A stretch of DNA of 32,000 nt from a bacterium (GTDB lineage Bacteria; Patescibacteriota; Microgenomatia; UBA1406; GWC2-37-13): positions 56,766-88,765 of the forward strand of contig JAKQDR010000165.1 in the NCBI GenBank assembly GCA_029573715.1, given 5' to 3'. Of this stretch, positions 5,874 to 32,000 are shown piece by piece (position 1 is the first letter of the stretch; every line of letters starts with the position of its first letter). A model generated the notes under the pieces. It saw only the letters and a list, made by a program, of their open reading frames with translations, was not told the origin of the DNA and made no database searches. Position numbers and translations under genes: made by a program.

Positions 5874-6032
5874 TAGAACAACCCGAAATACCCAACAAGT
5901 AGCCTTATAACGTGATTATAGGACGACATTAGCAAAAAGTGTTCGGTCTTGATAACACAAGTACATACTTATATTGGCACGTATTGACGATGTAAATGAT
6001 GATACAGTTAAGATGTAATCATAAAGACATAC

Positions 6033-6049
6033 ATAGTGTAAAACACTAT
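6033..6049. promoter_or_regulatory. 17-bp perfect palindrome ATAGTGT-AAA-ACACTAT, candidate operator upstream of lon
   Basis: Read directly: 7-bp arms at 6033-6039 and 6043-6049. More copies of the half-site lie at 6052-6058 (inverted, ACAGTGT), 6075-6081 (ACACTAT) and 6088-6094 (GCACTAT). Confidence 0.3.
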
Positions 6050-6109
6050 AGACAGTGTTACCACATGTCAAATGACACTATACGAATGCACTATTTAATC
6101 GCCTAACCC

Positions 6110-6138
6110 TTGACAATTAGCAATTAACCTTATATACT
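6110..6138 (+). promoter_or_regulatory. Sigma70-type promoter of lon (TTGACA-17 nt-TATACT)
   Basis: TTGACA at 6110-6115, a 17-nt spacer, then TATACT at 6133-6138. The lon ATG at 6149 is only 10 nt past the -10 box, which predicts a very short or absent leader. Confidence 0.5.
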
Positions 6139-6148
6139 GCTAACCATT

Positions 6149-13325: not shown

Positions 13326-13343
13326 ACCCTATCAAAAATGCAT

Positions 13344-17603: not shown

Positions 17604-18410
17604 ATGAGCACTAAACCAAACAAAATAAATCAAGAATCGGAATCGCTCAAAGAACAAATTATCAAGCTGGAAAAACAGCTTGAAAGTTTTAGGCATTCCA
17701 ACGACCATTTTCTCAAAAATAAACTTTTCCTCCACTACGACATCAAAGATCCAGAAAAGGTGGCGGTGGATTGCGAGACGAAATTACCCGTCTTGGCAGA
17801 AATAGACAAAAAGAAAATACAAAAAGGGAAAGAAACCGACCCGACCCACCTCATTATTGAGGGCGACAACTATCACGCACTCTCTGTCCTCAACTATACC
17901 CACGCTGGCAAGATTGATCTCATCTACATTGATCCGCCTTATAACACGGGCGCAAAAGACTGGAAATATAATAACGATTATGTAGATAGCGAGGACTCTT
18001 TCCGACATAGTAAGTGGCTTTCGTTTATGGAAAGTCGTCTGCGTCTCGCGAAAAATTTGATGAAGGATGACGGTTTCATAGTTTGTACCATTGATCACTA
18101 TGAGCTTTTCTATCTCGGCGCACTCATGGACAAAGTTTTTGGTGAACAAAATCGCATAGGTATTGTTACGGTGTTTATTAATCCAAAAGGACGTCAGCAT
18201 GAGAGATTTTTTTCTGCATCAACAGAATATATGCTTGTATATGCAAAAGACATATCAATAGCAGAATTTGAATCGGTTGCTATTGATGATGAAGTTGCGC
18301 AGACATTTGATCAGCAAGATACACAAGGTCGGTTTAGATGGCAGTCATTTGCGCGTATAAGAACAAGTACAAGTCGTGAGAAAAAACCTGCTTTTTATTA
18401 TCCTATTTAG
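17604..18410 (+). CDS. mod: Mod N-terminal fragment (catalytic DPPY region and start of the target-recognition region)
   Basis: LIIEGDNYHALSVLNYTHAGKIDLIYIDPPYNTGAKDWKYNNDY and SKWLSFMESRLRLAKNLMKDDGFIVCTID. Ends at TAG within ...PAFYYPI*. This entry duplicates part of the pseudogene entry, in case the halves are annotated separately. Confidence 0.6.
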   Translation: MSTKPNKINQESESLKEQIIKLEKQLESFRHSNDHFLKNKLFLHYDIKDPEKVAVDCETKLPVLAEIDKKKIQKGKETDPTHLIIEGDNYHALSVLNYTHAGKIDLIYIDPPYNTGAKDWKYNNDYVDSEDSFRHSKWLSFMESRLRLAKNLMKDDGFIVCTIDHYELFYLGALMDKVFGEQNRIGIVTVFINPKGRQHERFFSASTEYMLVYAKDISIAEFESVAIDDEVAQTFDQQDTQGRFRWQSFARIRTSTSREKKPAFYYPI

Positions 18411-18605
18411 GTAAGTCCAGACCTAAAAAAGATAACTACTACTAATACTGATGGTTATGTTCCCGTATATCCAGTATCTAATGGCAAAGATTATAGTTGG
18501 AAAACGAAACCAGATACATTTGCTAAGCGACTTGCAGATAGTCAGTATCGGGCTATTAGAGAAAACGGAAAACTTGAAATACAGCATAAATATCATGAAC
18601 AACAA

Positions 18606-19355
18606 GTGCTAAAAAACTTATGGACTGATAAAAAATACTTCCCAGAGTTTCAAGGAACGAATTTGTTAAAAAAAATAATCGGCGAGGGTAAGTTTAATTA
18701 TCCAAAGTCATTATATGCAGTCATGGACACGGTAAAATTAATGACTTCTGACCAAGGCATTGTTTTAGATTTTTTTGCCGGATCTGGAACAACTGGGCAT
18801 GCCGTTCTTGAATTAAACAAGGAAGACAATGGCACGCGTCAATTTATTCTTTGTACCAATAACGAAAATAAGATTGCTGAAGATGTTACCTACCCTCGCA
18901 TCAAAAAAGTGATTGACGGCTACGGCAACACGGCTGGCATCCCTGCCAATCTCCGCTACTTCCAGACAGACTTTGTGGAGAAAAAAGGAAGCGTCTCGCA
19001 ACTCAAGATTGATCTGACGCGCCAGTGCGCGGAGATGTTGCGTGTTAAGGAAAATGTTTTTGAAGCGGTGAAGCTCAAAAAGCAGGCGAAGAATTATAAG
19101 TTTTTCAAAAATGGTAACAAGTATCTTGGCATATTTTTTGATTTCTTTACCGATCCGGAGTTTACGGACTTTATCGCGGAGCTGAACAAGTTGCCGCAAG
19201 AGTCAGAAAAATCCGTATATATCTTTGTGTTGGACGGCTCGGCGAGCATCTTTGCCGATGAGTTTGCAGGCGTGGCAAATTGCGAGATTAAGGAAATTCC
19301 ACAAAAGATTTTGGATATTTATAAACAACTAGCGCGCGAAGTCGCGAGAAAATAA
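18606..19355 (+). CDS. mod: Mod C-terminal fragment (AdoMet-binding motif I region)
   Basis: NYPKSLYAVMDTVKLMTSDQGIVLDFFAGSGTTGHAVLELNKEDNGTRQFILCTNNEN. GTG 18606 is the first in-frame start after the TAG, and it has no convincing SD. Independent translation is therefore doubtful. Confidence 0.5.
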   Translation: MLKNLWTDKKYFPEFQGTNLLKKIIGEGKFNYPKSLYAVMDTVKLMTSDQGIVLDFFAGSGTTGHAVLELNKEDNGTRQFILCTNNENKIAEDVTYPRIKKVIDGYGNTAGIPANLRYFQTDFVEKKGSVSQLKIDLTRQCAEMLRVKENVFEAVKLKKQAKNYKFFKNGNKYLGIFFDFFTDPEFTDFIAELNKLPQESEKSVYIFVLDGSASIFADEFAGVANCEIKEIPQKILDIYKQLAREVARK

Positions 19356-19356
19356 T

Positions 19357-21615
19357 ATGGCACGAACACTCAAACAATTTCAAGAAATCGCGGTGCAGGC
19401 AATTTTGGCAGGCGCAAAGTATAAACTCACCAGCCAGAATATGGTTTTTGTTTTTAAGTCGCCGACTGGTTCCGGTAAAACTTTTATGATGTCGCAAGTG
19501 GTAGCGCGGATGGCAGATAGCGACAATGTGGACTTCAACTCAATGGACTTGTGTTTCCTCTGGGTGTCTATCGGCAAAGGCGATTTGGAAAAACAATCAG
19601 CGAAGTCGCTCAAAGAGGCATTTGACGGCTCGCCACAGGTAACAATGCTGGAAGCTTTTGCGGGAAGCAAGGATATTATTGAAAAGAACGAGGTGATTGT
19701 TTTTAACTGGGAAAAGATACGCACGCGCGACCGCGAGACGGGTGAATGGAAAAATGTGGTGATGAAAGATGGCGAGCGAAGCAGTTTTGTTGATGTGCTC
19801 AACGAGACGCGCGAAATGGGACGAAAAATAGTGTTGATTATTGACGAAAGCCAAATGGCTGCAAAGACAAAACTAGCGTTGGAGATAATTAATGATGTCA
19901 TCAAGCCCAACTTGATCATTGAGATGTCGGCAACACCTAAATTGACTGAACAGCCAGACTACACCGTGAACCCGCAGGATGTAATTGACGAGGAATTGAT
20001 CAAGAAAGATATTGTCATCAATGAAGATTTTACGAACGAAGACGCGAGCGAGCTGGACACGGAGCAAGCTGTTCTTTTGGCTAGCTGGAATAAATTGACG
20101 GAGCTTGAGGGCTTATTTAAGAAAAAGAAAATTGGCGTGAAACCACTCCTGTTGATACAGCTCCCAAACAGCGAAGCGGGAGATGCGAAAAAAGACGTGG
20201 CGGTAGAGTTTTTACGAGAGCAAGGAATATCGCAAGAAAACGGCAACTTGGCGATCTGGTTGTCGGAAGAGAAGTTTTTGGCGGACAAAGATTTGGTAAA
20301 GCTGAACAGTCCAGTGCGTGTATTGATTTTCAAACAAGCGATTGATACTGGTTGGGACTGCCCGCGCGCGCATATACTTTTGAAATGGCGTGAGAGTGCC
20401 AGCATCACTTTCGAGGTCCAAGTTTTAGGGCGCATATTGCGTATGCCGGAAGCGAAGCATTATGACGATGATGTGCTGAATCGCGGATATGTGTTTACTA
20501 ATACACCGAGAATTGATGTGAAGCGTGAAGTCTATGGCCCGAATATTATCAAGACTCTGGTCGGCAAAAAACGAGATGGTGTGAAGAATATCACTTTGCG
20601 AAGTTATTATCGCACGCGCACCACGTATAACGACATCACAGCAGGACTCTTTAGTGGGATTTTTGAAAATAAATTTGCGAAGTTTTTTGGATTAAGTGCT
20701 GATACGAGCGAAAACTATAAAACAATAAAGGCATGGAAAGGAAGCGACGGCGAAAAAGTAGAAATGGAAGGCAATTTGCGCGTGAATATTATGAGTGATG
20801 TAATCATTTCTGGTGGGACGATTGATGAGACGGCGCGCATAGAGGACGACTCCCAGACGAGCCTCGTGATGAGCGAGAACGATTTGCGCCTGAAAATAGA
20901 GGCGATTCTAGGAAGTGAACTCGCTGGCTATCAGGCGGCGCGGTCTATCCCCGTGATGAAGAATACGCTCGTTGGAATAATCAAAAAGTATTTGGGTAAG
21001 AACATCGTATGGATTGACGCGTTTATTATTTACAACGAGGCGATTATAAAAAGTATTTTGCACGAGGCCGTTGCAGACTTCAAGCAAAAGAAAGACAAAG
21101 TAGACGCAGAAAAATTGAAGGAGTTAGAGATATGGGATGACGCATGGCAGATTCCGGAGGAGAAAAGTTATAACGATAAGGTTTTTGCGGTGGAGCGCGT
21201 GGAGAATTATTTTTACGATAAGGCTATCTTGGAAGTTGAGAAAAGTGAGCCAGAAACGAAATTTATTGATTTGCTAAAAAATAGTGGGAAAGTCGTATGG
21301 TGGTGGAAAAACGGAGATGAACATATGCAGGAAAACTTCGGTATAAAAATAGACGAGAAAGGCAAAACTTTTCAGCCGGACTTTATCGTGAAATATACCG
21401 ACAATACTATCGGTATTTACGATACCAAGTCGGCAGGTTTTCAGGTGGAGGACACGAAAGCAAAAGCTGAGGCATTGCAGAACTACATCAGAGAACAGAA
21501 AAAAGTAGTGGGCGGAATTGTGATATTTGACCACGGTGTGGCAAAGATAAACTCAAAAGAGGTGTATCGGGATTTTAGAGAGGGTGCGGAAGACTGGGTT
21601 GATTTTTCGCGATAA
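19357..21615 (+). CDS. res: Type III restriction enzyme Res subunit (SF2 helicase-like ATPase plus C-terminal PD-(D/E)xK nuclease)
   Basis: 752 aa. Starts 1 nt after the mod stop. Walker A FKSPTGSGKT; motif II LIIDESQ; EMSATP; FKQAIDTGWDCPRAHIL; C-terminal nuclease-like FQPDFIVKYTDNTIGIYDTKS. Confidence 0.85.
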   Translation: MARTLKQFQEIAVQAILAGAKYKLTSQNMVFVFKSPTGSGKTFMMSQVVARMADSDNVDFNSMDLCFLWVSIGKGDLEKQSAKSLKEAFDGSPQVTMLEAFAGSKDIIEKNEVIVFNWEKIRTRDRETGEWKNVVMKDGERSSFVDVLNETREMGRKIVLIIDESQMAAKTKLALEIINDVIKPNLIIEMSATPKLTEQPDYTVNPQDVIDEELIKKDIVINEDFTNEDASELDTEQAVLLASWNKLTELEGLFKKKKIGVKPLLLIQLPNSEAGDAKKDVAVEFLREQGISQENGNLAIWLSEEKFLADKDLVKLNSPVRVLIFKQAIDTGWDCPRAHILLKWRESASITFEVQVLGRILRMPEAKHYDDDVLNRGYVFTNTPRIDVKREVYGPNIIKTLVGKKRDGVKNITLRSYYRTRTTYNDITAGLFSGIFENKFAKFFGLSADTSENYKTIKAWKGSDGEKVEMEGNLRVNIMSDVIISGGTIDETARIEDDSQTSLVMSENDLRLKIEAILGSELAGYQAARSIPVMKNTLVGIIKKYLGKNIVWIDAFIIYNEAIIKSILHEAVADFKQKKDKVDAEKLKELEIWDDAWQIPEEKSYNDKVFAVERVENYFYDKAILEVEKSEPETKFIDLLKNSGKVVWWWKNGDEHMQENFGIKIDEKGKTFQPDFIVKYTDNTIGIYDTKSAGFQVEDTKAKAEALQNYIREQKKVVGGIVIFDHGVAKINSKEVYRDFREGAEDWVDFSR

Positions 21616-22435: not shown

Positions 22436-23236
22436 GTGTTTCATCAAATCATCATGCATCCCTCTGCAATTGTGCCCGTCAATAAGCCCATATTTCGCAC
22501 TCCTCTGGAATGCGTTCATGCATATCGAAAATTGCATGCCATACCTGAAGATATTCCCATAAGCTACGCCGGGAGACTTGATCCGATGGCAGAAGGCGTG
22601 CTTATCTTGCTTATTGGCGCAGCAAACAAACAAAGGCGCACTCTGGAACATCTTGATAAAGCATATGAAGTTGAAGTTCTTTTTGGATGTGCAACTGATA
22701 CCGGTGATGTATTAGGAAAGGTCACCAAAATATCGAGTACGAAAATTGATGTCCAAAAAAAAGTTGTTGAAACAGCACTCTCCGCTTTCAGTGGCACCAT
22801 AAATCAACGCTATCCTGCCTATGCATCAATCAAAGTACAGGGTAAGCCACTTTTCTGGTGGGCCAGGCAAAACAGACTCCAAGAAATTGACATTCCAACT
22901 CACTCCGTACACATTCATAGTATTCACATGCACCAAATGCACCACATTACGCCTTTTGAATTGCGCCTTGCGATACGCAATCGTATCACATCTGTATGCG
23001 GTGACTTCAGACAGGAAGAAATTGCGAAACTCTGGGAAACGAAACTGTCGCAAGTGTCAGCAAATAGTAGGTTCCCCGTGTACACATTACACGTGTCGTG
23101 TGGTTCTGGAGTGTACATGCGGGTACTGGCCGAAGATCTGGGTGCTCAACTGGGATTACCATCACTTGCATACTCCATCGTACGCACCAAGGTGGGCGCC
23201 TACACACGTGCAGAGTGTGAACAACTGGTGTTTTAG
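22436..23236 (+). CDS. truB: tRNA pseudouridine(55) synthase TruB
   Basis: Catalytic Asp motif YAGRLDPMAEGVLILLIG, then KAYEVEVLFGCATDTGD and QRYPAYASIKVQGKPLFWWAR. The track starts at GTG 22436; ATG 22454 is an alternative start. Confidence 0.85.
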   Translation: MFHQIIMHPSAIVPVNKPIFRTPLECVHAYRKLHAIPEDIPISYAGRLDPMAEGVLILLIGAANKQRRTLEHLDKAYEVEVLFGCATDTGDVLGKVTKISSTKIDVQKKVVETALSAFSGTINQRYPAYASIKVQGKPLFWWARQNRLQEIDIPTHSVHIHSIHMHQMHHITPFELRLAIRNRITSVCGDFRQEEIAKLWETKLSQVSANSRFPVYTLHVSCGSGVYMRVLAEDLGAQLGLPSLAYSIVRTKVGAYTRAECEQLVF

Positions 23237-23683
23237 TTACACAGCGGCCGCAACTGCTTTCTCTGCCCATGCATTCGCTTGAGCAAGTACTTCGTCTTCC
23301 GGATATCCGTCAATCTTAAAGCTTTCGACAATGGGAGCTTTCCCCTTCTCTTTCAACAGTTCTTCGAATCTGTCTACGATGCCACAATAATGTGCGTAGC
23401 TACTGTCCCCGAGTCCAAATACTGCAAACTTCACTGCACCAAAAGGCTCTGTGTGTGTCTTGAGCTTTTCCATAAATACCTCTGATGTTGGATTTGGTTC
23501 ACCATCTCCCCAAGTCGAAGAGCTTAAAAATACCAATTCGTACTCATTCATCTGTGTCGGCTCAAGTTCATCCTGACTCATGATGGTTACATCGTGTGAA
23601 AGCCCTTTTAAATGGTCTGCCACATGCTCTGACACCATCTGGGTGTTGCCGCTTAATGTTGCAAAGGCGATAAGTATTTTCAT
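23237..23683 (-). CDS. Short-chain flavodoxin
   Basis: MKILIAFATLSGNTQMVSEHV (FMN phosphate loop), SSSTWGDGEPN and FGLGDSSYAHYC. I chose ATG 23683; the track's extension to 23746 adds an unlikely hydrophobic leader. Confidence 0.85.
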   Translation of the reverse strand: MKILIAFATLSGNTQMVSEHVADHLKGLSHDVTIMSQDELEPTQMNEYELVFLSSSTWGDGEPNPTSEVFMEKLKTHTEPFGAVKFAVFGLGDSSYAHYCGIVDRFEELLKEKGKAPIVESFKIDGYPEDEVLAQANAWAEKAVAAAV

Positions 23684-23767
23684 AAAAGAAAATGCAAATG
23701 GTAATAATATATAAATTCTGAAAGCTAGTATATCACGCACCCTCAATGAACGACTCGCCCACAGTCT

Positions 23768-26311
23768 TTAAGGGTGCAACGTATCAAAGGCTTCTTCAAT
23801 TTTTCGTGTTATCTGTGTCGCCGATTCAGTGGAATCGTATTGAACAGGCTCTCCCACCAGCGCCACTACCGTACCTCGTTTTTTGGGCAACATGGTCGCA
23901 ATGTCTTGAAATAACACTTGGGGTGCCGGCCATACATCTTCGTATCCCACAAGCTTTATGGGCACCACAGGGCATCCGAGCTCCTTTGCAACAAATCCAA
24001 CCCCCATTTTGAATCTGTCTTGCGTTTTTGCTCGTTGTAATCTGCCCTGCGGAAACATAATGAGGTATCTTCCACCTGCCAACAAATCCCATGCTCGCGC
24101 TAAAAAGGGGATCATTGTTGTTCCCGTTTGATCAAGGGGCAATCCGCCTGAAAGAAGCTCAATTACCTTGCCCATTACCCGATTATCCCAAAAGGTGCTT
24201 CGAGCAAGTGAAATAGATTTCACCGCTTGCGGGCCAAGTAAACGCCACACACAGGCAACATCAAGCACTCCGACATGATTGACCACAATAAGCGTACCTT
24301 CCGGTATGCGTTGCAACGATTGAGGCCAGCGTACTTTCAATTTGACAAACAAAACGTGGAGCGGAAATGTCACCACATACTGAAATACCAATCGAATGAG
24401 TTCACCCCACCAAGTAAAGTGCCACGTGTTGTCTGACTGAGTAGATTGGACTTGAGCACTATCAGTCATCATATGCTTGACATCTAAGACAGTGGTTTTG
24501 GCGTCTATGCGGGTTGCATCAATGATTGTCCCGAGATGCTCCTCTATGCTTGCTACCAGTTCACCCCGATCTATGGAATCAAGCCCCAAATCAGAGGTGA
24601 GCAGATCTGTGTCCTGTATTTTTGACTTATCGATTGAGCTAATGCGCGACAAAATGTCAATCACGTCATACGGTGATGTATTCGCTTGATTACTATCGAC
24701 ACGCATATCATCGCGATCTAAAACCCCCGACACAACATCTTTTATGGCCTTCCTATCAAGCTTGAGTGTGGCTGTTCGGGGAAAATCCTCGCCATCCCAA
24801 AGTGAATGACTCATGATTTGTTGCTTTGACTCAAGTAAAGAGTTTATCTCTCGAACAATTGCAGAGCCATCAAAATGATTGCGGTCTTTTGGAATAAGCA
24901 CCGCATGCACGATGTCTGCTTTTTCACCAGGGAGCCCAAAGACACACAGATCTTTTATAGCGTTATGTTTTGTAGCGATTCGCTCAACATCCTCAACAAA
25001 CACCTTCTCACCGCTTGCAAGGACTATTTTAAAGAAGTCTCGTCCAACTACACGTAATACCCCATGAGCATCAAGGGCGCCGATATCACCCGTTCGATAC
25101 CATCCCTCGTGAAATACTGCTTTAGTCTTCTCTTCATTATCATAATATCCCAGCGAAACACACGGACTTTTTATGAGAATTTGTCCCTGCGCATCAAGCG
25201 TAACCTCTACCCCTTGAACTGCTGTGCCCACATTGCCAACGCCATGTGTGCCATCGTTTATCGTTGCTATTGCAGTCACTTCGGTCGCACCATAACCCTC
25301 AAGTATTTGTATCCCCATTGCCACAAAGTTTCGGCCGACATGATAGTTCATCGGTGCACCGCCACACCCGATAAATCGAAGATGCCCGCCAAATACATGA
25401 TGAATACGAGCAAATATTATCCGCCGGATAAAACGCGGCATGTATGATGCTACAGAAAGAAGTTTTTGAAGTAATGCACCTTTCCCCTGCTCTGCCGCCT
25501 GATCTTCAATACGTCGCCAAAACACTGCCATAAGCTGAGGAACAAGCGCCAAATAAGTTGGTTTCACATCTTGCATGGACTTTCGCAATTGAAAAGAGTT
25601 GACACGAGTCATATACGTCACTTGTGCCCCCATGCTCAGCGCCGCAAACAATCCAATAATTTGCTCAAACATGTGGCTCAGGGGCAATACCGAAATAGTA
25701 CGATGATGGAGATGTTTTTCGGGTATCAGCGGGTAGAGAGCCTGTAAGTTTTTAAGCATATTATTTTGAGAAAGCATTACTCCCTTGGGAATGCCCGTCG
25801 TGCCGGATGTGTACACCACTTGGCACAATGCTTGGACATCAAGCGCCTTTTGTGGGGTAACTTTCGGGCCAATATTTGCTTTGATTAACGCAAACAAATC
25901 CTCAAGCATCCATGTGTGAGAGAATTGCTGTGCAATCGGTGCATGATTGATAAATCGAGAATGAAAAAGAGCGGTTGGTTTCGTTTGCTCAATTATTCGT
26001 GTGAGTGTCGCAGCTCCGGTGCGATGGTCAATGGGCACCGCAACAAATCCATACGCAAACAAAGTCAAAAGAAGCAGTGCATACTCGGGGCAGTTAAACG
26101 CCCATATCAACACCTTGTCACCAGGTTGCACGCCATGCGCGATGAGAAACTGCGCGATAGACACCATGCGATCCGGAATATCTTTGTAAAGCACTCGTTC
26201 ACGCACCACACGTCTGCGTATCTCAAATGCAATTCGATCGGGATATGCAGATGCGACAGACTCAACAAAATCTGCAACTGTTGGCTGGGTGTGTACCGAA
26301 GAATTAGACAT
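23768..26311 (-). CDS. Tri-domain fusion: acyl-adenylating enzyme (acyl-ACP synthetase/FAAL-like), carrier domain, and PlsC-type lysophospholipid acyltransferase
   Basis: 847 aa. Adenylation motifs are YTSGTTGIPKGV (aa 167-178), EGYGATE, WYRTGDIG and GRDFFKIVLASGEKVFVEDVE. Carrier motif is DLGLDSIDRGELV with Ser579 (codon 24575-24577). Acyltransferase motifs are NHVGVLD (HX4D, His679 codon 24275-24277), FPQGRL and CPVVPIKL. Confidence 0.85.
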   Translation of the reverse strand: MSNSSVHTQPTVADFVESVASAYPDRIAFEIRRRVVRERVLYKDIPDRMVSIAQFLIAHGVQPGDKVLIWAFNCPEYALLLLTLFAYGFVAVPIDHRTGAATLTRIIEQTKPTALFHSRFINHAPIAQQFSHTWMLEDLFALIKANIGPKVTPQKALDVQALCQVVYTSGTTGIPKGVMLSQNNMLKNLQALYPLIPEKHLHHRTISVLPLSHMFEQIIGLFAALSMGAQVTYMTRVNSFQLRKSMQDVKPTYLALVPQLMAVFWRRIEDQAAEQGKGALLQKLLSVASYMPRFIRRIIFARIHHVFGGHLRFIGCGGAPMNYHVGRNFVAMGIQILEGYGATEVTAIATINDGTHGVGNVGTAVQGVEVTLDAQGQILIKSPCVSLGYYDNEEKTKAVFHEGWYRTGDIGALDAHGVLRVVGRDFFKIVLASGEKVFVEDVERIATKHNAIKDLCVFGLPGEKADIVHAVLIPKDRNHFDGSAIVREINSLLESKQQIMSHSLWDGEDFPRTATLKLDRKAIKDVVSGVLDRDDMRVDSNQANTSPYDVIDILSRISSIDKSKIQDTDLLTSDLGLDSIDRGELVASIEEHLGTIIDATRIDAKTTVLDVKHMMTDSAQVQSTQSDNTWHFTWWGELIRLVFQYVVTFPLHVLFVKLKVRWPQSLQRIPEGTLIVVNHVGVLDVACVWRLLGPQAVKSISLARSTFWDNRVMGKVIELLSGGLPLDQTGTTMIPFLARAWDLLAGGRYLIMFPQGRLQRAKTQDRFKMGVGFVAKELGCPVVPIKLVGYEDVWPAPQVLFQDIATMLPKKRGTVVALVGEPVQYDSTESATQITRKIEEAFDTLHP

Positions 26312-27221
26312 TATCTAAAGCTAAACTTTCAAGATATGAAAGCACGGGGGTGAAGCAGTCAAGTGCGAGGTGTGTCCACTCTTCTTGAGTTTTTTGTCGG
26401 ATGGTTTCGGCAATTTTTGCACGAATATTTGGTGAAGTATCAAACTGATTATTTCCAATCTTTGAAATTTCAAGTGCATCACAAAAAGAACTCCATACCG
26501 ATCGCTCTATTGCAGCAAGTGCCATATGTTTTCCATCTTTTGTTTCATACAAGGTGTAGCATGGATAATTGCCCCAAATGGCAACCTCATCTGCGTTAAA
26601 TTCACGGCCCGCATGTGTAAGCGGTGATCCAACAGGGGCAAGCGAGCTTTTTACTGTCTCAAAAGCAGATATGTGCAGATGAGCGCTCATGTTGCGTAAA
26701 AGAGCCGAAAGTATCTTTATGGCGAGATGATAAGAGGTGAAAATATCAGCGAGAGGAATGTGCGGGATGTAGTGAGCTTTTCCAAGCGTAAGTGCACCAC
26801 TATATCCGAGTATATTCAAATCTCTCATTGCCACGCGCGACAACGCATGATCAAAGCCAAAGTTGGAAATGGAACAATACACAATTCGTGGGTTGATTGT
26901 ATGGCATTCTTCATAGCTAAATCCGAGCTTGCTCATTCGGCCAGGGCGCATGTTTTCGATAACAACATCGCTTTCTTTTACAAGGGTATTAAGCCGATCA
27001 ATATCTGTTTGGTCTCTATAGTTTACCGGTACAACATGCTGACTTTTTGCAATTATTTGCGCAAATGAAGGAGTGTGATCATCGTGGGGCAAAGTTATAT
27101 CGTGCCGATCGGTATCACGCACATCCTCTACTGTGGTGACATGCACTTCGTTTGGCATTAACTGTTGTAAAATATAAGGCCCGGGAATAAGTGTAGAGAA
27201 ATTTAGAATTTTATATTGCAT
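26304..27221 (-). CDS. Family III CoA-transferase / alpha-methylacyl-CoA-racemase-like protein (CaiB/BaiF fold)
   Basis: ILNFSTLIPGPY, SDVVIENMRPGRMSKLGFSYEECHTINPRIVYCSISNFG, RDLNILGYSGAL, YTLYETKDGKHMALAAIE and CFTPVLSY are collinear with MCR/CaiB-type proteins. I chose ATG 27221; the track's 27248 is a TTG. The stop overlaps the downstream ATG by 8 nt, and the start overlaps the acpS end by 11 nt. Confidence 0.68.
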   Translation of the reverse strand: MQYKILNFSTLIPGPYILQQLMPNEVHVTTVEDVRDTDRHDITLPHDDHTPSFAQIIAKSQHVVPVNYRDQTDIDRLNTLVKESDVVIENMRPGRMSKLGFSYEECHTINPRIVYCSISNFGFDHALSRVAMRDLNILGYSGALTLGKAHYIPHIPLADIFTSYHLAIKILSALLRNMSAHLHISAFETVKSSLAPVGSPLTHAGREFNADEVAIWGNYPCYTLYETKDGKHMALAAIERSVWSSFCDALEISKIGNNQFDTSPNIRAKIAETIRQKTQEEWTHLALDCFTPVLSYLESLALDNV

Positions 27222-27549
27222 TTTTTGTAAACCAAATGGCAATGGCAACCACTGTGCTTGTAGTATGACTCAAAGAAACATCAAGTTCTTTAATCAAGTT
27301 TCCTTGCCCATCATACACGAAAGGCCTGCCCTCCGCGTTGTGTAATATTCTGACTGTGAGAAAATCGAGTTTCTTCATGTATCCTGTTTTATAAATTGCT
27401 TCTTTCACTGCAAAAATACCTGCAATAGACTCGATTTTTCTACCAGTGAGCTCTTCGGGATGAAAATGATTTTGAGCAAATGCGTGCCCGCCCTGATTGA
27501 ATGCGTCTTCAAATCGTTTCAATTCAATCATGTCTATTCCAATGCGCAT
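27211..27549 (-). CDS. acpS: Holo-[acyl-carrier-protein] synthase (AcpS-type 4'-phosphopantetheinyl transferase)
   Basis: 112 aa. MRIGIDMIELKRFE and ESIAGIFAVKEAIYKT are the two AcpS signature regions. Confidence 0.85.
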   Translation of the reverse strand: MRIGIDMIELKRFEDAFNQGGHAFAQNHFHPEELTGRKIESIAGIFAVKEAIYKTGYMKKLDFLTVRILHNAEGRPFVYDGQGNLIKELDVSLSHTTSTVVAIAIWFTKNAI

Positions 27550-27595
27550 AGGAATGCATTCTATGTAGATGAATACGTGATGTCAACCAGAAGAC

Positions 27596-28324
27596 TTAAT
27601 CAGCATCATATATTGCACGGACGACCTCATGAGGAGTGTCAATGGGCACAGAGTGGGTCGCGTCCACCGCACGAACATGTGCATGCTTTAATAACGGATA
27701 CAAATCCATGGCGCGGAATTTATGCAACACGGTGTCTCGGGTGCCATACAAAAGCGTTGTTTTTGTCGTTACTCCCCGTACCAAATCACTCATATCATAA
27801 GTGAATATATCTCTATAACAAGAACACACGGCATGGAGCGAGTTGTACTTTAAAAAGTCGGCTGTACTTATGTATCCAAATCGCGTGCGTTTGATAATGT
27901 TTTGGTATGACATAAGTTTCACTCCTTTTTTTACCAGATAATCGGCCTTTTTATATCGAGTGCCCACGGCCAGTCCGGCTCGATACAACATATTTAATTT
28001 GTGAGGATGTTTGGGTAGTGGTGTAGACGTTAATACCAAAGAAGCAACCCGATGAGGGTACATGTGGGCATAGTGCAATGCAACAAGGCCTCCAAGCGAC
28101 TGTCCGACGAGAATCATGGGCGTTCGAATGTTTTGTTCATGCACGACATCTTGTACATAGTGTGCATATGTCTGCAGTGACAATTGCTTATCTTTATACC
28201 GTGAGCCGTACTCGGGGAAATCGAGGGCATAGGGTGCATATATTGCTGGAGAAAGAAGTTTCTTCACTCCATCCCACATGGTACTGCGATAACTTAAGCC
28301 GGGCAAAAATACAACGGGTTTCAT
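27596..28324 (-). CDS. Alpha/beta-hydrolase (esterase/lipase/thioesterase class)
   Basis: Nucleophile elbow GQSLGG, acid candidate in GTRDTV, His in DATHSVP. I chose ATG 28324 (MKPVVFLPG), 7 nt after the upstream stop. The track's extension to 28540 overlaps the upstream gene. Confidence 0.75.
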   Translation of the reverse strand: MKPVVFLPGLSYRSTMWDGVKKLLSPAIYAPYALDFPEYGSRYKDKQLSLQTYAHYVQDVVHEQNIRTPMILVGQSLGGLVALHYAHMYPHRVASLVLTSTPLPKHPHKLNMLYRAGLAVGTRYKKADYLVKKGVKLMSYQNIIKRTRFGYISTADFLKYNSLHAVCSCYRDIFTYDMSDLVRGVTTKTTLLYGTRDTVLHKFRAMDLYPLLKHAHVRAVDATHSVPIDTPHEVVRAIYDAD

Positions 28325-28331
28325 AATAGAT

Positions 28332-29255
28332 TTATCGTGTGTGAAATCCACGAAGATGACGATCAAGGGGAATAAATATCTTTTGAGGATCAGTGATGCC
28401 AACCGCATGATCGGCATCCGGGATGCACTCATATGTTGCGCGCGGCATAATGCCAGCAAGTCGGCTCGAGCGCTCAGGCAAAACCGCCGTGTCGTTTTGC
28501 GCGGAAAGTACGAGTGTCGGTGTGTGCACAAGTTGAGCAACGTGGGTGAAGCTATTCATAGAGAGGTCGATAGCGAGGTCAAAAATAGACTTAATGTTAA
28601 ACTGACTTGTTTTATATAAGCTCCGAAACAAATGGCGTTTTCTCACTTTTTTTAGCATCTGAGGATAGAGCCTGGTATATATTACAACATAAAAGAATGC
28701 TATTGCAATTATTTTAACAGGCCTAGCGTTGATAAGCTTTATTAGGTTTTTGTGTCGAGTGAAAAATGGGTGGAGTTTTCGCATCATTTTTAGCCGTGAA
28801 GCGCTATTTTTCTCCATAGCAGCAAACTGCTCTATGCCGTCATATGGCACCGAGAATACTGTCAATGAACACACAGACTCGGGATGTTTGTGAGCATAAT
28901 TTATCGCATGCACCCCACCGGTTGAATATCCAAGAAGATGCACCGGGCCCGACCCCACCACATCCATATGAAATATACGCAAAAAATCCAAATAATAGTC
29001 AAACCCCGAATATACATTCATATCCGATTCCGACCCTCCATAGCCCGGTAAATCAACCACATAGCATTTGTTATGCGGCGCAATAAGGTGTAAAAGAGGC
29101 ACATATAATGCGCTTGCAGTAGGCCAGCCCACCAGAAATATAAGGGGCGGGCCACTTGACGGGCTTTGCTCAAGAGATGACTCCAAGTAATGTATGCGCA
29201 GTCCGCGAATATTCACATGGCGCGACACATGAAGCTTGGGAGTTTTTGAAGGCAT
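28332..29255 (-). CDS. Alpha/beta-hydrolase with a hydrophobic lid/anchor segment
   Basis: 307 aa. Has LIFLVGWP, nucleophile elbow GYSTGG, AQNDTAV and DADHAV. An inserted hydrophobic helix VKIIAIAFFYVVIYTRLY lies between the core strands. Confidence 0.75.
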   Translation of the reverse strand: MPSKTPKLHVSRHVNIRGLRIHYLESSLEQSPSSGPPLIFLVGWPTASALYVPLLHLIAPHNKCYVVDLPGYGGSESDMNVYSGFDYYLDFLRIFHMDVVGSGPVHLLGYSTGGVHAINYAHKHPESVCSLTVFSVPYDGIEQFAAMEKNSASRLKMMRKLHPFFTRHKNLIKLINARPVKIIAIAFFYVVIYTRLYPQMLKKVRKRHLFRSLYKTSQFNIKSIFDLAIDLSMNSFTHVAQLVHTPTLVLSAQNDTAVLPERSSRLAGIMPRATYECIPDADHAVGITDPQKIFIPLDRHLRGFHTR

Positions 29256-29301
29256 ACGAAATGAAGATTATAGGTACAATCAGTGATTTCTACAACAACA
29301 A

Positions 29302-31692
29302 TTAATGTGCGCAGTCTAGGCAGTATGTTGTGTATTTATCTTTGAGCACTGTCTTTTCACGTTGTTCGGTGTTCTCTTCTCCTTCCTTGGCCTGCTTATC
29401 GGTGTCACGATTGACCCACACCTGCTCGCGTGATATGGTCGTTGTGCGCACATTTTCCGTGCCCGCGATAAAGAATTCATATCGTGCGTCGGCACAGTCA
29501 CCTCCATCCCCGTCTTTGAGCCTTCCGTCTGCACACACCTGTCTTCCCACAACCGTTTCAGGTTTGACGGGCCATAAATCAGGTTGATCAGTCAAAACAT
29601 GGGTCATTACCTTATTCCAAATAGGTGCCGCACCGGTGACACCCGAGGCAAGCCACGGATTCATGGGTGTATTGTCATTATTTCCCACCCACACTGCCAC
29701 CAAAAAGTTTGGGGTGTACCCTACCGTCCAATTGTCGCGCTTTTCATCGGTTGTTCCGGTTTTGACCGATACTGCCGTGTGATCTTTTATGACAAGCTGT
29801 GAACCGCGCCCAAATGCCTGTGCGCGTGCATTATCATCAAGCAATATGTGCGATATGAGGTACGCCGTCTCCTCCGATATGGCGCGCGGGCCATTCATGG
29901 CCAAGTAATTGGGCATGGGAAGTGGCTCTTGCACTTTCTCAACATAATTTGGATCTTCAAACTGATAGAGTATTTTGCCATGTGGGTCAACTACTTTCAA
30001 AAGCGATTGCACCTGTTTTGGTCTCCCTCTATTGGGAAATGCAGAATATGCTTGTGCAAGTTCATACATCGGAAGCTCTCCTCCTCCAAGCGTTAATGAA
30101 AGCCCATATCTGCTCGGGTCTTTTTGAAATGCACTAATGAGAAACGCCGATGATGATGCGATAAAATCATCTACCGTATTAAGCCCCATAACTTTCACCG
30201 CAGCGATATTGTTTGAATTGCCCAGCGCAAACCGTATTTGTGTAGGTCCGCCAAATCCGCCCTCATAATTGCGCGGACAATAGGGTTTGCCCACCGCCGG
30301 GAAACAAGTCGCCGCATCAATAAGCACGCTTGCCGGCGTGATGAGCTTTCTATCAAGCGCTATTGCATAGTTTATTGGCTTTATCGAAGAGCCCGGTTGT
30401 CTATTTTCAGCAGTCACCACATTAAATGAACCGGATGGGCTCGCAAAATAGTCGGCAGAGCCTACCATCGCCAGTATCTCCCCCGTCACCGGCCGGGTGA
30501 CAAGCACCGCAGCATTGCCTACGTCTAAGTCTTTTACCTTCTCAAGCTCTTCCTTGACTGCCAATTCTGCATACTCTTGAATCCCCAGATCGAGAGTAGT
30601 ATAGATTTTTAGGCCTCCGGTGTTTATGAGGTTTTCATCGAACTGATCTTCCAAAATACTCCGTACATAAAACACAAAATGGGGGGCTTTTATTGAGACA
30701 AGCGGGGGTTTTACGGTGAGTTCGGTTGCGATCGCCTCATTGTATCGTTTTTGAGATATGTAGCCCTGCTCAAGCATGCGCCCCAATACATCGTCTCGTC
30801 TGGATTTGGCAAGTTCCGGATTTGCATAAGGGCTGTATCTGCTGGGAGCCTGAGGAAGTCCGGCCAAAAACGCCGCTTCGGCGATGCTTAAATCTTTTGC
30901 ATCTTTATCAAAATACTTATTGGCCGCTTCCTCAATCCCGTATGCATATCCTCCATATGGTATTTGGTTGAGATACATCTCAAGAATTTCATCTTTGGAA
31001 AATTTTCGTTCGACTGCAAAAGCTAAAATGACTTCGCGTATTTTGCGGATTATTGTTCGCTCAGGGCTTAACAGCGCTTGTTTCACGAGCTGTTGCGTTA
31101 TGGTTGAGCCACCTTGCAAACCCTGCCGTTTTACCGTCATATCCCGAATGGCCCGCAGAATTCCTGATCCAAACGATACACCCGAGTGCTTATAAAAATC
31201 TTTATCCTCAACTGCAATAGATGCCTGACCAATATATTTGGGAAGAGAGCTGAGTTTAATTGCGGTGCGGTTTTCTTCATCAAAAAGCTCATATAGAACT
31301 ATGCCGTTTCTATCGTAGATGTGCGAAGAGAGTGAAGTTGATTGAAAATTGCGCAGCTTCTCGGGGCTCGGCAAATCCTTGAGGATGTAAGCATACACTG
31401 ACCACACCACGGCAAACAGCATCCCTCCGGTCACAAATGCCATAATCGCCAGCCGTACAAACAGCGGTCGTCGAATGCCCAGGATTTTAACAGATGCATG
31501 GCCATGCGCATGATGTGGATGGGTTGTCTCATGACCCTTATGTGCATGATGCGCCTGGTGATGCGTTACATTATGATTGTTCGCGTGTAGTGGGGTATGA
31601 TTGTGCGGGTTTGACATAGTCCAGGATGGCATTGTAGCATAGTTTTTGGATCTCTTATACCTCGTGAACCTCATGCAAATTTCTGCCCTCAT
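29302..31692 (-). CDS. Class A penicillin-binding protein (PBP1A type: GT51 transglycosylase plus transpeptidase)
   Basis: GT51 motifs SIAVEDKDFYKHSGV, GGSTITQQLVKQ and RKIREVILAFAVERKFSKDEILEMYLNQIPYG. Transpeptidase motifs SSIKP, a possible SxN, and KTGTT. One TM anchor (LAIMAFVTGGMLFAVVWSVYAYIL). Start is uncertain: ATGs at 31692, 31674, 31632 and 31617. Confidence 0.9.
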   Translation of the reverse strand: MRAEICMRFTRYKRSKNYATMPSWTMSNPHNHTPLHANNHNVTHHQAHHAHKGHETTHPHHAHGHASVKILGIRRPLFVRLAIMAFVTGGMLFAVVWSVYAYILKDLPSPEKLRNFQSTSLSSHIYDRNGIVLYELFDEENRTAIKLSSLPKYIGQASIAVEDKDFYKHSGVSFGSGILRAIRDMTVKRQGLQGGSTITQQLVKQALLSPERTIIRKIREVILAFAVERKFSKDEILEMYLNQIPYGGYAYGIEEAANKYFDKDAKDLSIAEAAFLAGLPQAPSRYSPYANPELAKSRRDDVLGRMLEQGYISQKRYNEAIATELTVKPPLVSIKAPHFVFYVRSILEDQFDENLINTGGLKIYTTLDLGIQEYAELAVKEELEKVKDLDVGNAAVLVTRPVTGEILAMVGSADYFASPSGSFNVVTAENRQPGSSIKPINYAIALDRKLITPASVLIDAATCFPAVGKPYCPRNYEGGFGGPTQIRFALGNSNNIAAVKVMGLNTVDDFIASSSAFLISAFQKDPSRYGLSLTLGGGELPMYELAQAYSAFPNRGRPKQVQSLLKVVDPHGKILYQFEDPNYVEKVQEPLPMPNYLAMNGPRAISEETAYLISHILLDDNARAQAFGRGSQLVIKDHTAVSVKTGTTDEKRDNWTVGYTPNFLVAVWVGNNDNTPMNPWLASGVTGAAPIWNKVMTHVLTDQPDLWPVKPETVVGRQVCADGRLKDGDGGDCADARYEFFIAGTENVRTTTISREQVWVNRDTDKQAKEGEENTEQREKTVLKDKYTTYCLDCAH

Positions 31693-31742
31693 GCAAACTT
31701 TCGTTCAATTCATACACAAATAATAAAAGTTTATAATATAAT

Positions 31743-31955
31743 ATGTTTATGAAAATGAGTACGGCCGAATTGCAGCAGGCTTGGAGATTCTATGATCATT
31801 ATAGACTTCTGCATGGATTCAATGGCGTTAGTGATGATTTCAAGCCACGAGAGCCAAGACCTACACGGCCGGAAATTGGGACAAGTGTTCTTACGGGGAA
31901 TGTTTTCCAATTCACAGCTCAAAAACACTATCCTGATATTTACGAAATGTTATAA
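31743..31955 (+). CDS. Hypothetical small protein (70 aa)
   Basis: ORF only, with no recognisable motif. A TATAAT box at 31732-31737 sits 5 nt before the ATG, so if the gene is real it would be leaderless. Confidence 0.3.
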   Translation: MFMKMSTAELQQAWRFYDHYRLLHGFNGVSDDFKPREPRPTRPEIGTSVLTGNVFQFTAQKHYPDIYEML

Positions 31956-32000
31956 CGAAACCAAACTTCAATCGATATTTAAAACACTCTAAGTAAGTTG

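Follow-up and report, generated by a model that had tools for sequence, protein, structure and literature searches.

The window (the whole 32,000-nt stretch of DNA that we analysed) carries on its minus strand an intact open reading frame (ATG...TAA) of 847 codons plus stop, in which an adenylate-forming (ANL) domain, an acyl carrier domain and a PlsC-type acyltransferase domain follow one another in a single polypeptide, the A-ACP-AT fusion. A plus-strand reading of the same interval is ruled out, as stops occur throughout. The protein is 100% identical to HNQ31000.1 ('AMP-binding protein', Candidatus Woesebacteria), and since the identical protein is found on five contigs from several sources, the reading frame is not an assembly artefact. 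The gene and its parts are:

23768..26311, minus strand: A-ACP-AT fusion gene, 847 aa plus stop (ORF list, translation, three Pfam domains)
24728..26311, minus strand: ANL adenylate-forming domain, aa 1-528 (PF00501; motifs A3, A5, A7, A8 and A10; Foldseek)
24674..24727, minus strand: flexible linker, about aa 529-546 (pLDDT <50)
24437..24673, minus strand: acyl carrier domain, aa 547-625 (PF00550; Ser579 codon TCC at 24575-24577)
24347..24415, minus strand: long hydrophobic/amphipathic helix, aa 633-655, N-terminal to the acyltransferase core
23771..24346, minus strand: PlsC/LPLAT-type acyltransferase domain, aa 656-847 (PF01553, TIGR00530 AGPAT and Aas AT models)
24275-24277, 24260-24262 and 24047-24049, minus strand: His679, Asp684 and block III Gln755, respectively (motif table)

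Domains of the fusion protein

In Pfam searches the protein shows AMP-binding, PP-binding and PlsC-type Acyltransferase in this order, each above its curated cut-off (PF00501: aa 17-390, E 4e-62, 210.6 bits against 29.9; PF00550: aa 550-611, 28.8 bits against 20.8; PF01553: aa 668-786, 48.1 bits against 23). An earlier, sequence-only reading had proposed the domain order, the boundaries and the catalytic motifs; all of these hold, and every motif that it quoted was located. Judged by comparison of sequences, chance is excluded as the origin of the three collinear domains, because the arrangement is common to hundreds of homologous clusters.

The ANL domain comprises an N-terminal subdomain that runs to about residue 422, a hinge formed by GRDFFK (A8, aa 423-428) and a C-terminal subdomain with the catalytic lysine of A10, Lys517, in PRTATLK. 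The remaining core motifs are A3 (YTSGTTGIPKGV, aa 167-178 of the fusion protein), A5 (GYGATE, aa 339-344) and A7 (YRTGD, aa 405-409), and all five are conserved in the homologue alignment. The full-length predicted model has a pLDDT of 85.6, and its top Foldseek matches are ANL CoA ligases, luciferases and the A-PCP portion of carboxylic acid reductase (CAR). The closest solved relatives of the domain are oxalate-, feruloyl-, malonyl- and OSB-CoA ligases, with FadD13 also among them, which counts against treating a fatty-acyl substrate as settled. The top 60 sequence and top 50 fold matches of the domain include no FAAL, the nearest being CoA ligases.

The full-length Foldseek search was swamped by the A domain, and a model of the tail (AlphaFold2, residues 531-847; pLDDT 91.5) was therefore made. 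The linker has pLDDT <50 in both models (residues 532-546 of the full-length model, residues 1-15 of the tail model). The carrier domain that follows is modelled with averages of 74-98 in 10-residue blocks over tail residues 21-100, and it superposes on solved type II ACPs, which have the four-helix ACP fold, with an rmsd of 1.3-1.5 Å and a TM of 0.74-0.81 (Foldseek). Type II ACPs are also its best PDB sequence matches, aligned across the DS motif. The carrier motif DLGLDSID occupies residues 574-581, and in the predicted model Ser579 begins a helix (578-592). This serine, previously proposed as the phosphopantetheine site, is indeed the invariant carrier serine: aligned homologues carry it without exception (34/34 and 60/60), as do the full-length relatives taken from fetched loci (74/74), and it is kept even in relatives where Pfam misses PP-binding. 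Within the 32-kb window there is no second carrier protein, the fusion's carrier being the only carrier-like segment.

The predicted structure thus identifies the central segment as an ACP fold and the C-terminal part as PlsC-like. For the latter, the best fold match is T. maritima PlsC 5KYM (E 1.6e-8, rmsd 3.4 Å over 209 columns, TM 0.65 over the target), followed by GPAT 1K30, PatA, LpxM and GPAT1 (Foldseek), and the best sequence models are TIGR00530 AGPAT and Aas AT. The fusion shares with 5KYM the HX4D motif, the Pro and Gly of block III, a block IV-like PVVPI and a preceding hydrophobic helix, but identity is 17-18%, no block II Arg can be made out, block III has a Gln and the acyl donor would be tethered in cis. 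The helix (633-654 in the predicted model, with the hydropathy maximum at aa 638-642) is, by analogy to the N-terminal helices of 5KYM, a probable membrane-interface anchor. The HX4D motif, NHVGVLD (aa 678-684), keeps its His and Asp in 73/74 full-length relatives. Block III, FPQGRL (aa 753-758), does not match the expected (F/Y)PEG(T/x)R: the Pro and Gly are invariant, whereas in place of the Glu there is a Gln or, in two relatives from the clade of Candidate Phyla Radiation (CPR) bacteria to which the fusion belongs, an Ala. The canonical Glu is lost in this clade and PEG is retained in 65/65 non-CPR relatives. Because of this replacement, the acceptor site of the CPR-clade enzymes differs from that of the textbook PlsC/GPAT.

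Neighbouring genes and their conservation

Upstream of the fusion gene, and on the same strand, lie the following features.

26304..27221, minus strand: truncated family-III CoA-transferase/racemase-like gene, 305 aa (PF02515)
27211..27549, minus strand: holo-ACP synthase AcpS, 112 aa (PF01648; 11-nt overlap with the CoA-transferase-like gene)
27558..27586, minus strand: promoter-like site TTGACA-17-TAGAAT (11/12), within the 46 nt that separate acpS from the gene of hydrolase 2
27596..28324, minus strand: alpha/beta hydrolase 2, 242 aa, nucleophile motif GQSLGG (Pfam Abhydrolase_1/6)
28332..29255, minus strand: alpha/beta hydrolase 1, 307 aa, nucleophile motif GYSTGG (Pfam Abhydrolase_1, Hydrolase_4)

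AcpS, already recognised in the sequence-only reading, is adjacent to the fusion gene on the same strand at 12 non-redundant loci from three divergent lineages (the CPR clade, a second bacterial lineage and one archaeal contig), often with a 4-nt overlap; within the CPR clade it is adjacent and co-directional in 8/10 contexts. Such adjacency is the pattern expected if the carrier domain is a client of AcpS. The promoter-like site upstream of acpS is the best-scoring one in 22800-32000 and is suggestive only, the site total not exceeding the shuffled expectation; totals from the scan for sigma-70 promoters and terminators were at chance level.

The CoA-transferase-like gene, which the earlier reading missed, starts with ATG at 27219-27221 (the reading frame continues to a TTG at 27248), and its stop overlaps the fusion start by 8 nt. 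The match to PF02515 (E 1.5e-39, 136.7 bits) covers profile positions 4-301 of 366. The protein shares with the CaiB/BaiF/Frc/MCR family the PF02515 fold and the catalytic Asp, which is invariant and which we take to be equivalent to Frc Asp169 and MCR Asp156, but at about 305 aa it is missing the C-terminal 60-110 residues of normal members. Its best PDB matches are the Mtb Far and MCR racemases and CaiB/BaiF; Far and MCR, the closest solved relatives, handle long-chain acyl thioesters. Orthologues keep the MCR-type His/Asp pair and the window copy has an Arg at the MCR His position, a difference that bears on any racemase reading. The gene is directly upstream of the fusion in 7/9 CPR-clade loci as against 0/65 others. 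Short (~305 aa) CoA-transferase-like proteins form only about nine clusters, and in the CPR clade they are always beside an A-ACP-AT gene.

Hydrolase 2 (ATG at 28322-28324) is lipase/esterase-like, with PDB matches to monoacylglycerol lipase 6QE2, lipase 4OPM, 6I8W and ABHD6 that are all weak (E 1e-6 to 1e-4); homologues flank the fusion gene at loci L005, L089, L090, L091 and L094. Hydrolase 1 has generic alpha/beta-hydrolase PDB matches only, and a 312-aa orthologue takes the same position in L001 and L003. Elsewhere in the CPR clade the neighbours include two patatins, a glycerophosphodiesterase (GDPD), alpha/beta hydrolases with lipase-like PDB matches, a choline/ethanolamine-kinase-like gene and an ABC exporter. 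Together, AcpS and the lipase-like neighbours suggest a route to membrane lipid from scavenged parts.

The flavodoxin gene downstream was considered as a further component and rejected; we treat it as outside the system, because it is kept only in closely syntenic Woesebacteria relatives and is absent from all other contexts. The window, L001 and L003 all have a PBP1A gene beside the cluster, as does the divergent L097/L113/L124 group. The window also carries a large region of glycosyltransferase, O-antigen-ligase-like and PMT_2 genes; truB, restriction-modification genes and strand switches lie between this region and the cluster.

Relationship to known enzymes

Homologues of the fusion fall into about 330 clusters at 50% identity (E<=1e-10); the CPR clade comprises about 30 clusters at 90% identity. 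A scan of contigs with the full-length alignment added few full-length family loci, as its patterns matched ANL motifs in general and most hits were ordinary acyl-CoA synthetases. The architecture is not unusual; it is collinear with the A-ACP-AT portion of ElbD-like proteins and, on the sequence comparison, already known. ElbD, an ether-lipid enzyme of Myxococcus xanthus, has in its C-terminal three domains the same series of ANL ligase, ACP and PlsC-type acyltransferase, and by BLASTP residues 6-802 of the fusion align collinearly with 553-1393 of the ElbD-like protein P0120 (26% identity, E 1e-82). P0120 has in addition a fatty-acyl reductase (NAD_binding_4 and Sterile, residues 17-539), which the fusion does not. 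The CPR clade also differs from ElbD in its PQG/PAG block III and its linkage to AcpS, the truncated CoA-transferase-like gene and lipases. For ElbD, the ACS and ACP activities are reported to have been confirmed in vitro and acyltransferase activity to have been undetectable in vitro; uncharacterised ElbD-like homologues without the FAR domain are also mentioned in other phyla (PMC9131029). Our literature search found no specific account of an A-ACP-AT fusion in CPR bacteria. What appears to be new, all within the CPR clade, is the conserved, translationally coupled, truncated CoA-transferase-like partner, the loss of the block III Glu, and the gene set of AcpS, CoA-transferase-like protein, fusion and lipase.

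Escherichia coli Aas, to which the fusion had been likened, is likewise built from a PlsC-type acyltransferase and an acyl-activating ANL domain, and its donor is an acyl-phosphopantetheine thioester. Its order is reversed, AT(1-203)-AAS(204-719), and in place of the embedded carrier it uses free holo-ACP, lysophospholipids being re-acylated via acyl-ACP (PMC11416262). The comparison stands: NCBIfam Aas models match both halves of the fusion in swapped order, with 141.6 and 119.4 bits against equivalog cut-offs of 1221 and 1349. Aas is partnered by the lysophospholipid flippase LplT, whereas the cluster of the fusion has no lplT neighbour and no MFS gene. An MFS gene beside the Geomonas homologue was considered as LplT and rejected, its best NCBIfam matches being other MFS families. 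In the A-T didomain loaders (carboxylic acid reductase A-PCP, McyG A-PCP and FAAL-ACP), as proposed for the fusion, an ANL domain is followed by the carrier that it loads; the fold matches include A-PCP structures of CAR and McyG, and the NCBIfam carboxylic acid reductase model matches with E 5e-42. The partner downstream of these loaders is a reductase, condensation or ketosynthase domain, whereas that of the fusion is a lipid acyltransferase, and the A domain of the fusion is nearer to CoA ligases than to FAALs.

Proposed function and alternatives

On balance, we favour the view that the fusion is a self-contained fatty-acid activating and esterifying enzyme, related to the ElbD core and Aas-like, which acts in a deacylation/re-acylation module for host-derived lipids. 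AcpS would convert the embedded carrier to its holo form at Ser579. The ANL domain would then turn free fatty acid and ATP into acyl-AMP, after which its C-terminal subdomain would rotate and the acyl group would be thioesterified to the phosphopantetheine arm of its own carrier; we infer this activation and self-loading from the motifs and from the reported in vitro loading activity of the ElbD ACS and ACP domains (PMC9131029). On its disordered linker of ~18 residues, the carrier could hand the acyl chain to the PlsC-type domain, held at the membrane interface by helix 633-655, where His679 and Asp684 would catalyse transfer to a glycerolipid hydroxyl. A lysophospholipid seems the most likely acceptor, with glycerol-3-phosphate or lysophosphatidic acid as alternatives. 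The fusion would be co-transcribed with AcpS, the truncated CoA-transferase-like protein and the two lipase-like hydrolases, which in this Woesebacteria genome would together make up the module.

The sequence-only reading had likewise envisaged activation, retention in cis and transfer. This remains the most economical interpretation, and it is strengthened by the coupling to AcpS in three divergent lineages and by the lipase, patatin and GDPD neighbours. Its suggestion that the enzyme works without CoA was too strong, because AcpS takes CoA as its phosphopantetheine donor and a conserved gene of the CoA-transferase family overlaps the fusion start. The proposed fit to an organism that cannot make fatty acids survives in part. 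CPR bacteria are reported to make neither fatty acids nor phospholipids and to be enriched in lysolipids (PMC7242380, PMC12114108), and the lipid-hydrolase neighbours in the CPR clade agree with scavenging. As free-living bacteria such as Geomonas and Nitrosomonas carry members, the family is not inherently tied to organisms that depend on external fatty acids, and its presence in bacteria with normal lipid synthesis counts against a reading confined to scavenging. The conservation of the CoA-transferase-like partner is a further point against re-acylation, which does not account for it; our best guess is that the partner acts on the carrier-bound acyl thioester, exchanging or unloading it.

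An unlikely, though serious, alternative keeps the activation and carrier chemistry and replaces the membrane glycerophospholipid acceptor by an envelope component or specialised lipid (a glycolipid, lipoteichoic-acid anchor, lipid-linked glycan, amino-lipid or small metabolite). The block III Glu lost in the CPR clade is canonical in glycerolipid acyltransferases, and PatA and LpxM, two PF01553-fold enzymes that occur among the Foldseek matches, acylate glycolipids; PBP1A beside the cluster and the glycosyltransferase, O-antigen-ligase-like and PMT_2 region in the window could be read in the same sense. However, PlsC and then GPATs are the best fold matches, AGPAT and Aas AT are the best sequence models, the glycosyltransferase block is set apart from the cluster, and the recurrent CPR neighbours (patatin, GDPD, lipase-like) are phospholipid-degrading rather than glycan enzymes.

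We think it improbable that the ANL domain is an acyl-CoA synthetase whose acyl-CoA is taken by the acyltransferase, with the carrier dispensable and the CoA-transferase-family neighbour moving CoA from one acid to another in the manner of the CaiB/CaiC and BaiF/BaiB pairs. This would suit an ANL domain with CoA ligases as nearest relatives and no FAAL among its top matches, and a translationally coupled family-III CoA-transferase homologue with an intact catalytic Asp. It is hard to reconcile with a carrier serine kept in 74/74 relatives, which would be difficult to explain in a decorative domain, with a dedicated AcpS coupled to the fusion in three lineages, one of them archaeal, or with a CoA-transferase partner confined to the CPR clade when the carrier is universal in the family; the ElbD ACS and ACP activities noted above also argue against it. 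We give very little credence to an ether-lipid role like that of ElbD, in which alkyl-ether lipid synthesis would begin with the acylation of DHAP or G3P and a reductase would act in trans: the collinear alignment of all three domains to ElbD-like proteins (26% identity) and the split elbD of Poribacteria and Acidobacteriota, with the reductase as its own ORF (bioRxiv 10.64898/2026.06.23.733905), would allow it, but the window and the CPR-clade neighbourhoods examined contain no FAR/NAD_binding_4, AGPS, elbB HAD or elbE epimerase-like gene, and the neighbours are AcpS and lipid hydrolases.

A wider form of the re-acylation proposal is possible, although we put it forward tentatively and think it rather less likely than not. 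AcpS, the A-ACP-AT protein and lipases, joined in CPR bacteria by the truncated CoA-transferase-like protein, may form a portable, self-sufficient lipid re-acylation module with which ultra-small symbionts (CPR and apparently some archaea), otherwise lacking ACP, FASII and the Pls pathway, rebuild membrane lipids from host-derived fatty acids and lysolipids; the substrate of the CoA-transferase-like partner would then be a protein-bound phosphopantetheine thioester in place of CoA. If so, the activity would be new to the partner's family, and a new use of the family-III CoA-transferase fold could come to light. The proposal addresses how CPR/Patescibacteria without fatty-acid or phospholipid synthesis come by their membranes; one lipid study did not identify ACP-producing or ACP-requiring enzymes in its CPR genomes (PMC7242380). 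Since the clade is rare among CPR, it is not the general CPR solution and would explain lipid acquisition for some lineages only. For these the locus is a cloneable candidate, with genes for a PPTase, lipid hydrolases and a putatively self-loading, acyl-activating acyltransferase in one putative operon, and it would also supply a first function for the widespread reductase-less ElbD-like family.

Domain organisation and predicted structure

The A-ACP-AT fusion gene, which joins an ANL adenylation (A) domain, a carrier and a PlsC-type acyltransferase, had been read from sequence alone as a single polypeptide with these three domains in this order. The frame is intact, though on the minus strand; a plus-strand reading of 23768-26311 was rejected, its translation being full of stops. 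It is one of six minus-strand genes that are co-directional and separated by tiny gaps or overlaps.

Genes of the minus-strand run in the window, with one codon of the fusion gene
23768-26311, minus strand: A-ACP-AT fusion gene, ATG start, intact ORF, 847 aa
24047-24049, minus strand: codon of Gln755 (acyltransferase block III), a CPR-clade-specific change
26304-27221, minus strand: family-III CoA-transferase-like gene; overlaps of 11 nt with acpS and 8 nt with the fusion gene
27211-27549, minus strand: AcpS
27596-28324, minus strand: alpha/beta hydrolase 2; weak top PDB matches to monoacylglycerol lipase, a lipase, 6I8W and ABHD6
28332-29255, minus strand: alpha/beta hydrolase 1
29302-31692, minus strand: PBP1A

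Pfam places AMP-binding at residues 17-390 (E 4e-62), PP-binding at 550-611 (28.8 bits against a cut-off of 20.8) and Acyltransferase (PF01553) at 668-786 (48.1 bits against 23), all above the curated cut-offs and in the order expected. The motifs previously quoted, Ser579 included, are all in place: DLGLDSID carries Ser579, NHVGVLD carries His679 and Asp684, and FPQGRL occupies 753-758. The A10 lysine is Lys517, within PRTATLK. By sequence or structure prediction, the ANL catalytic motif set is complete, the carrier is a canonical ACP with an invariant serine, and the C-terminal domain has the PlsC fold with HX4D. A 100% identical protein from Candidatus Woesebacteria (HNQ31000.1; source organism in the Patescibacteria/Microgenomates group according to NCBI) was deposited simply as 'AMP-binding protein', and the fusion protein occurs on five contigs in several archives.

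The full-length AlphaFold2 model, made with a full-length alignment, has a pLDDT of 85.6 and a pTM of 0.81 and shows residues 532-546 as a disordered linker; for residues 531-847 modelled on their own, the pLDDT is 91.5. In Foldseek searches of the PDB, the carrier segment fits the type II ACPs of P. falciparum, E. coli and A. aeolicus at 1.3-1.5 Å with TM 0.74-0.81, and the top PDB sequence matches of the carrier-plus-acyltransferase tail are also ACPs, in alignments spanning the DS motif. A first objection, that the central segment is not a carrier, is removed because the segment is predicted to fold as one and Ser579 is conserved. The C-terminal domain matches T. maritima PlsC best (5KYM, E 1.6e-8), followed by squash GPAT, PatA, LpxM and human GPAT1 (Foldseek). 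Just ahead of the acyltransferase core is a long hydrophobic helix (633-654), which by analogy with PlsC may be a membrane-interface element. The A domain most resembles CoA ligases, luciferases and the CAR/McyG A-PCP didomains, with no FAAL among its top matches in sequence and fold searches. Its nearest solved relatives have varied substrates; we have assumed that the acyl substrate is a long-chain fatty acid.

Conservation across the family

There are many collinear full-length homologues, of about 820-850 aa. When the carrier-plus-acyltransferase tail alone was searched against 1.84 billion representatives, 332 clusters matched at E<=1e-10, most of them 820-850 aa long and matching at the same C-terminal position; the family's annotations go no further than 'AMP-binding protein' or 'long-chain acyl-CoA synthetase'. 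Alignments of 34 and of 60 homologues show an invariant carrier serine, which is kept in 74 of 74 non-redundant full-length relatives from genomic loci, and persists where Pfam misses PP-binding, as in the DLGLTSID of Desulfuromonadales-type members. The HX4D His/Asp pair is kept in 73 of the 74, the sole exception being a Chloroflexi protein. Some homologous proteins of about 300 aa (P0140, P0163, P0183, P0185, P0187, P0200, P0221, P0222, P0256) start with Met and consist of carrier and acyltransferase only. They may be stand-alone ACP-AT didomain genes or internal-start gene-calling artefacts; if real, they would suggest that ACP-AT is the evolutionary unit, to which the A domain is fused or from which it is separate.

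The members from Patescibacteria, the window protein among them, form a small clade (the CPR clade; about 30 clusters at 90% identity), and the fusion of this clade therefore cannot be a general CPR solution. Block III of the acyltransferase is PQG (n=7) or PAG (n=2) in all nine CPR-clade members, as against the canonical PEG in 65 of 65 non-CPR members examined. The change presumably falls in the acceptor site, and because block III is altered, the acceptor-binding site of the CPR clade departs from that of a textbook PlsC/GPAT.

AcpS and the CoA-transferase-like partner

An adjacent AcpS had also been claimed, and the gene at 27211-27549 (minus strand), within the same co-directional run, bears this out. 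The region's best sigma-70-like site, TTGACA-17-TAGAAT, lies in the 46-nt gap directly upstream of acpS, in a scan that as a whole was at chance level. Searched with a profile of the carrier segment of this family, the 32-kb window showed no second carrier protein; it also has no fab or pls genes.

We compared 88 non-redundant loci with a family member, gathered by look-up of encoding contigs and by a metagenome scan with the CPR-clade tail alignment, using local ORF calling, HMM and BLAST clustering. The CPR-clade proteins share 37-58% identity with the query and occur in ten distinct contexts. A same-strand AcpS is adjacent in eight of the ten; none was seen within the fetched flanks of L006 and L092. 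In a low-GC bacterial lineage outside the clade (L097, L113, L119, L124), AcpS overlaps the fusion gene by 4 nt. At L096 (contig Ga0209542_10005158), AcpS overlaps by 4 nt the stop codon of a full A-ACP-AT gene (4555-7331) whose Ser, HX4D and PEG are intact. We judge this locus archaeal from its EF-1alpha (723 bits) and archaeal-type triose-phosphate isomerase, each over the NCBIfam cut-off, and a further full-length member is present at L009, whose label is Methanosarcinales archaeon. To our knowledge, ACP is normally absent from archaea, and the two-gene module of AcpS and A-ACP-AT may have been transferred into them. No AcpS linkage was seen in the Geomonas or Chloroflexi loci, which belong to free-living bacteria. 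We infer that the phosphopantetheinyl transferase accompanies the fusion in hosts that probably own no other carrier protein. An AcpS that travels with the fusion is to be expected if the embedded carrier truly is modified and serves as an intermediate station.

The CoA-transferase-like gene lies directly upstream of the fusion in seven of the nine CPR-clade loci with DNA, with orthologues of the window copy (26304-27221, minus strand) at L001, L003, L005, L006, L089 and L093; P0272 with P0015 and P0273 with P0014 are probably two further cases, to judge by the equal lengths of their contigs. Its translational coupling to the fusion gene is found in the CPR clade only. This short form (about 305 aa) is rare: about nine clusters of it were found, whereas normal members, of 360-430 aa, number in the hundreds. 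The last 60-110 residues at the C-terminus are missing, and the catalytic Asp (Asp159 of the 305-aa protein) is invariant; the MCR-type His is kept in the orthologues and is Arg in the window copy. Closest to it are the racemases Mtb Far and MCR, whose ligands are long-chain acyl thioesters. Pairs of a ligase and a family-III transferase exist (CaiC/CaiB, BaiB/BaiF), and in them the thioester is recycled, something that would be impossible with an esterifying acyltransferase. Our guess is that the partner unloads the phosphopantetheine arm or exchanges the acyl groups on it.

Known systems, proposed role and further neighbours

The fusion is not an Aas (the E. coli acyltransferase/acyl-ACP synthetase), since its domain order is reversed, it contains a carrier and it scores far under the equivalog cut-offs. 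Although collinear with the core of ElbD, the myxobacterial ether-lipid enzyme with an N-terminal reductase (FAR), it is not an ElbD either, because the reductase and the elb or AGPS context are absent. 'ElbD-like homologues' without the FAR domain have been mentioned from other phyla (PMC9131029), and split versions of elbD are known in which A-ACP-AT forms an ORF of its own (bioRxiv 10.64898/2026.06.23.733905). The architecture is therefore already known, though uncharacterised, which weakens the novelty that the sequence-only reading gave it; the mechanism proposed there, activation, loading of the protein's own arm and transfer, is plausible and has been strengthened. A full-text literature search with partial coverage found no description of an A-ACP-AT fusion in CPR. 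What appears new in the CPR clade is the block III change, the AcpS coupling, the truncated CoA-transferase-like partner and the lipid-hydrolase neighbours.

The fusion gene has alpha/beta hydrolase genes nearby in the window and at L001, L003, L005, L089, L090, L091 and L094. Two patatin genes flank it on the P0009 contig, a glycerophosphodiester phosphodiesterase (GDPD) gene is directly downstream at L090, and a choline/ethanolamine-kinase-like gene and an ABC exporter are upstream at L092. We suggest that AcpS would make the holo form of the carrier, that the A domain would adenylate a fatty acid and load its own arm, and that this arm would swing over to the acyltransferase, which would esterify a membrane-associated acceptor. 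A precedent is E. coli Aas, which re-acylates lysophospholipids through the same pair of chemical steps, using free holo-ACP (PMC11416262). The lipases and patatins of the CPR clade would release free fatty acids and lysolipids, and GDPD would yield G3P. The context suggests a Lands-cycle-like deacylation and re-acylation of acquired lipids, in keeping with reports of CPR bacteria that lack fatty-acid and phospholipid synthesis and are enriched in lysolipids (PMC7242380, PMC12114108). As a candidate enzyme for re-acylating lipids in ultra-small prokaryotes that are lipid-auxotrophic, the fusion can be tested directly.

The window has two tandem hydrolase genes upstream of acpS (27596-29255, minus strand), and the 58%-identical relatives L001 and L003 have one; as called, the two ORFs share 209 nt, an overlap that disappears if an internal ATG (28322-28324) is the start of the second. 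A 12-locus non-CPR clade (L139, L129, L111, L121, L101, L112, L122, L120, L103, L102, L127, L157) has a different conserved partner from the CPR clade, an MBL-fold hydrolase (PF00753) immediately upstream on the same strand, with an acyl-CoA dehydrogenase nearby in some. In another lineage (L149, L141, L152 and eight related soil-metagenome loci), the genes conserved around the fusion gene encode an amine-oxidase/phytoene-desaturase-like flavoprotein, a VTT/DedA-domain membrane protein, a radical SAM enzyme and an alpha/beta hydrolase that shares a BLAST cluster with the CPR hydrolases. On the Geomonas chromosome (L008:10507-11751 and 13140-14204), an MFS transporter, not LplT by NCBIfam, directly follows the fusion gene, and an AI-2E-family transporter lies 2.7 kb downstream; in one homologue, P0056 (1207 aa), an AI-2E transporter domain (PF01594) is part of the same protein.

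PBP1A-type genes adjoin the fusion gene in Woesebacteria (window 29302-31692) and at the divergent AcpS-linked loci L097 (7371-9569, 10442-12673), L113 and L124, whether by coincidence, through conserved synteny or because of a link to the cell envelope. Elsewhere in the window, 17604-21615 (plus strand) resembles a type III-like restriction-modification unit whose mod gene is split or interrupted: 17604-18410 matches positions 1-111 of the 221 in the N6_N4 DNA-methylase profile, the next ORF (18606-19355, plus strand) matches positions 143-213, and a ResIII helicase-type gene (19357-21615, plus strand) follows directly.
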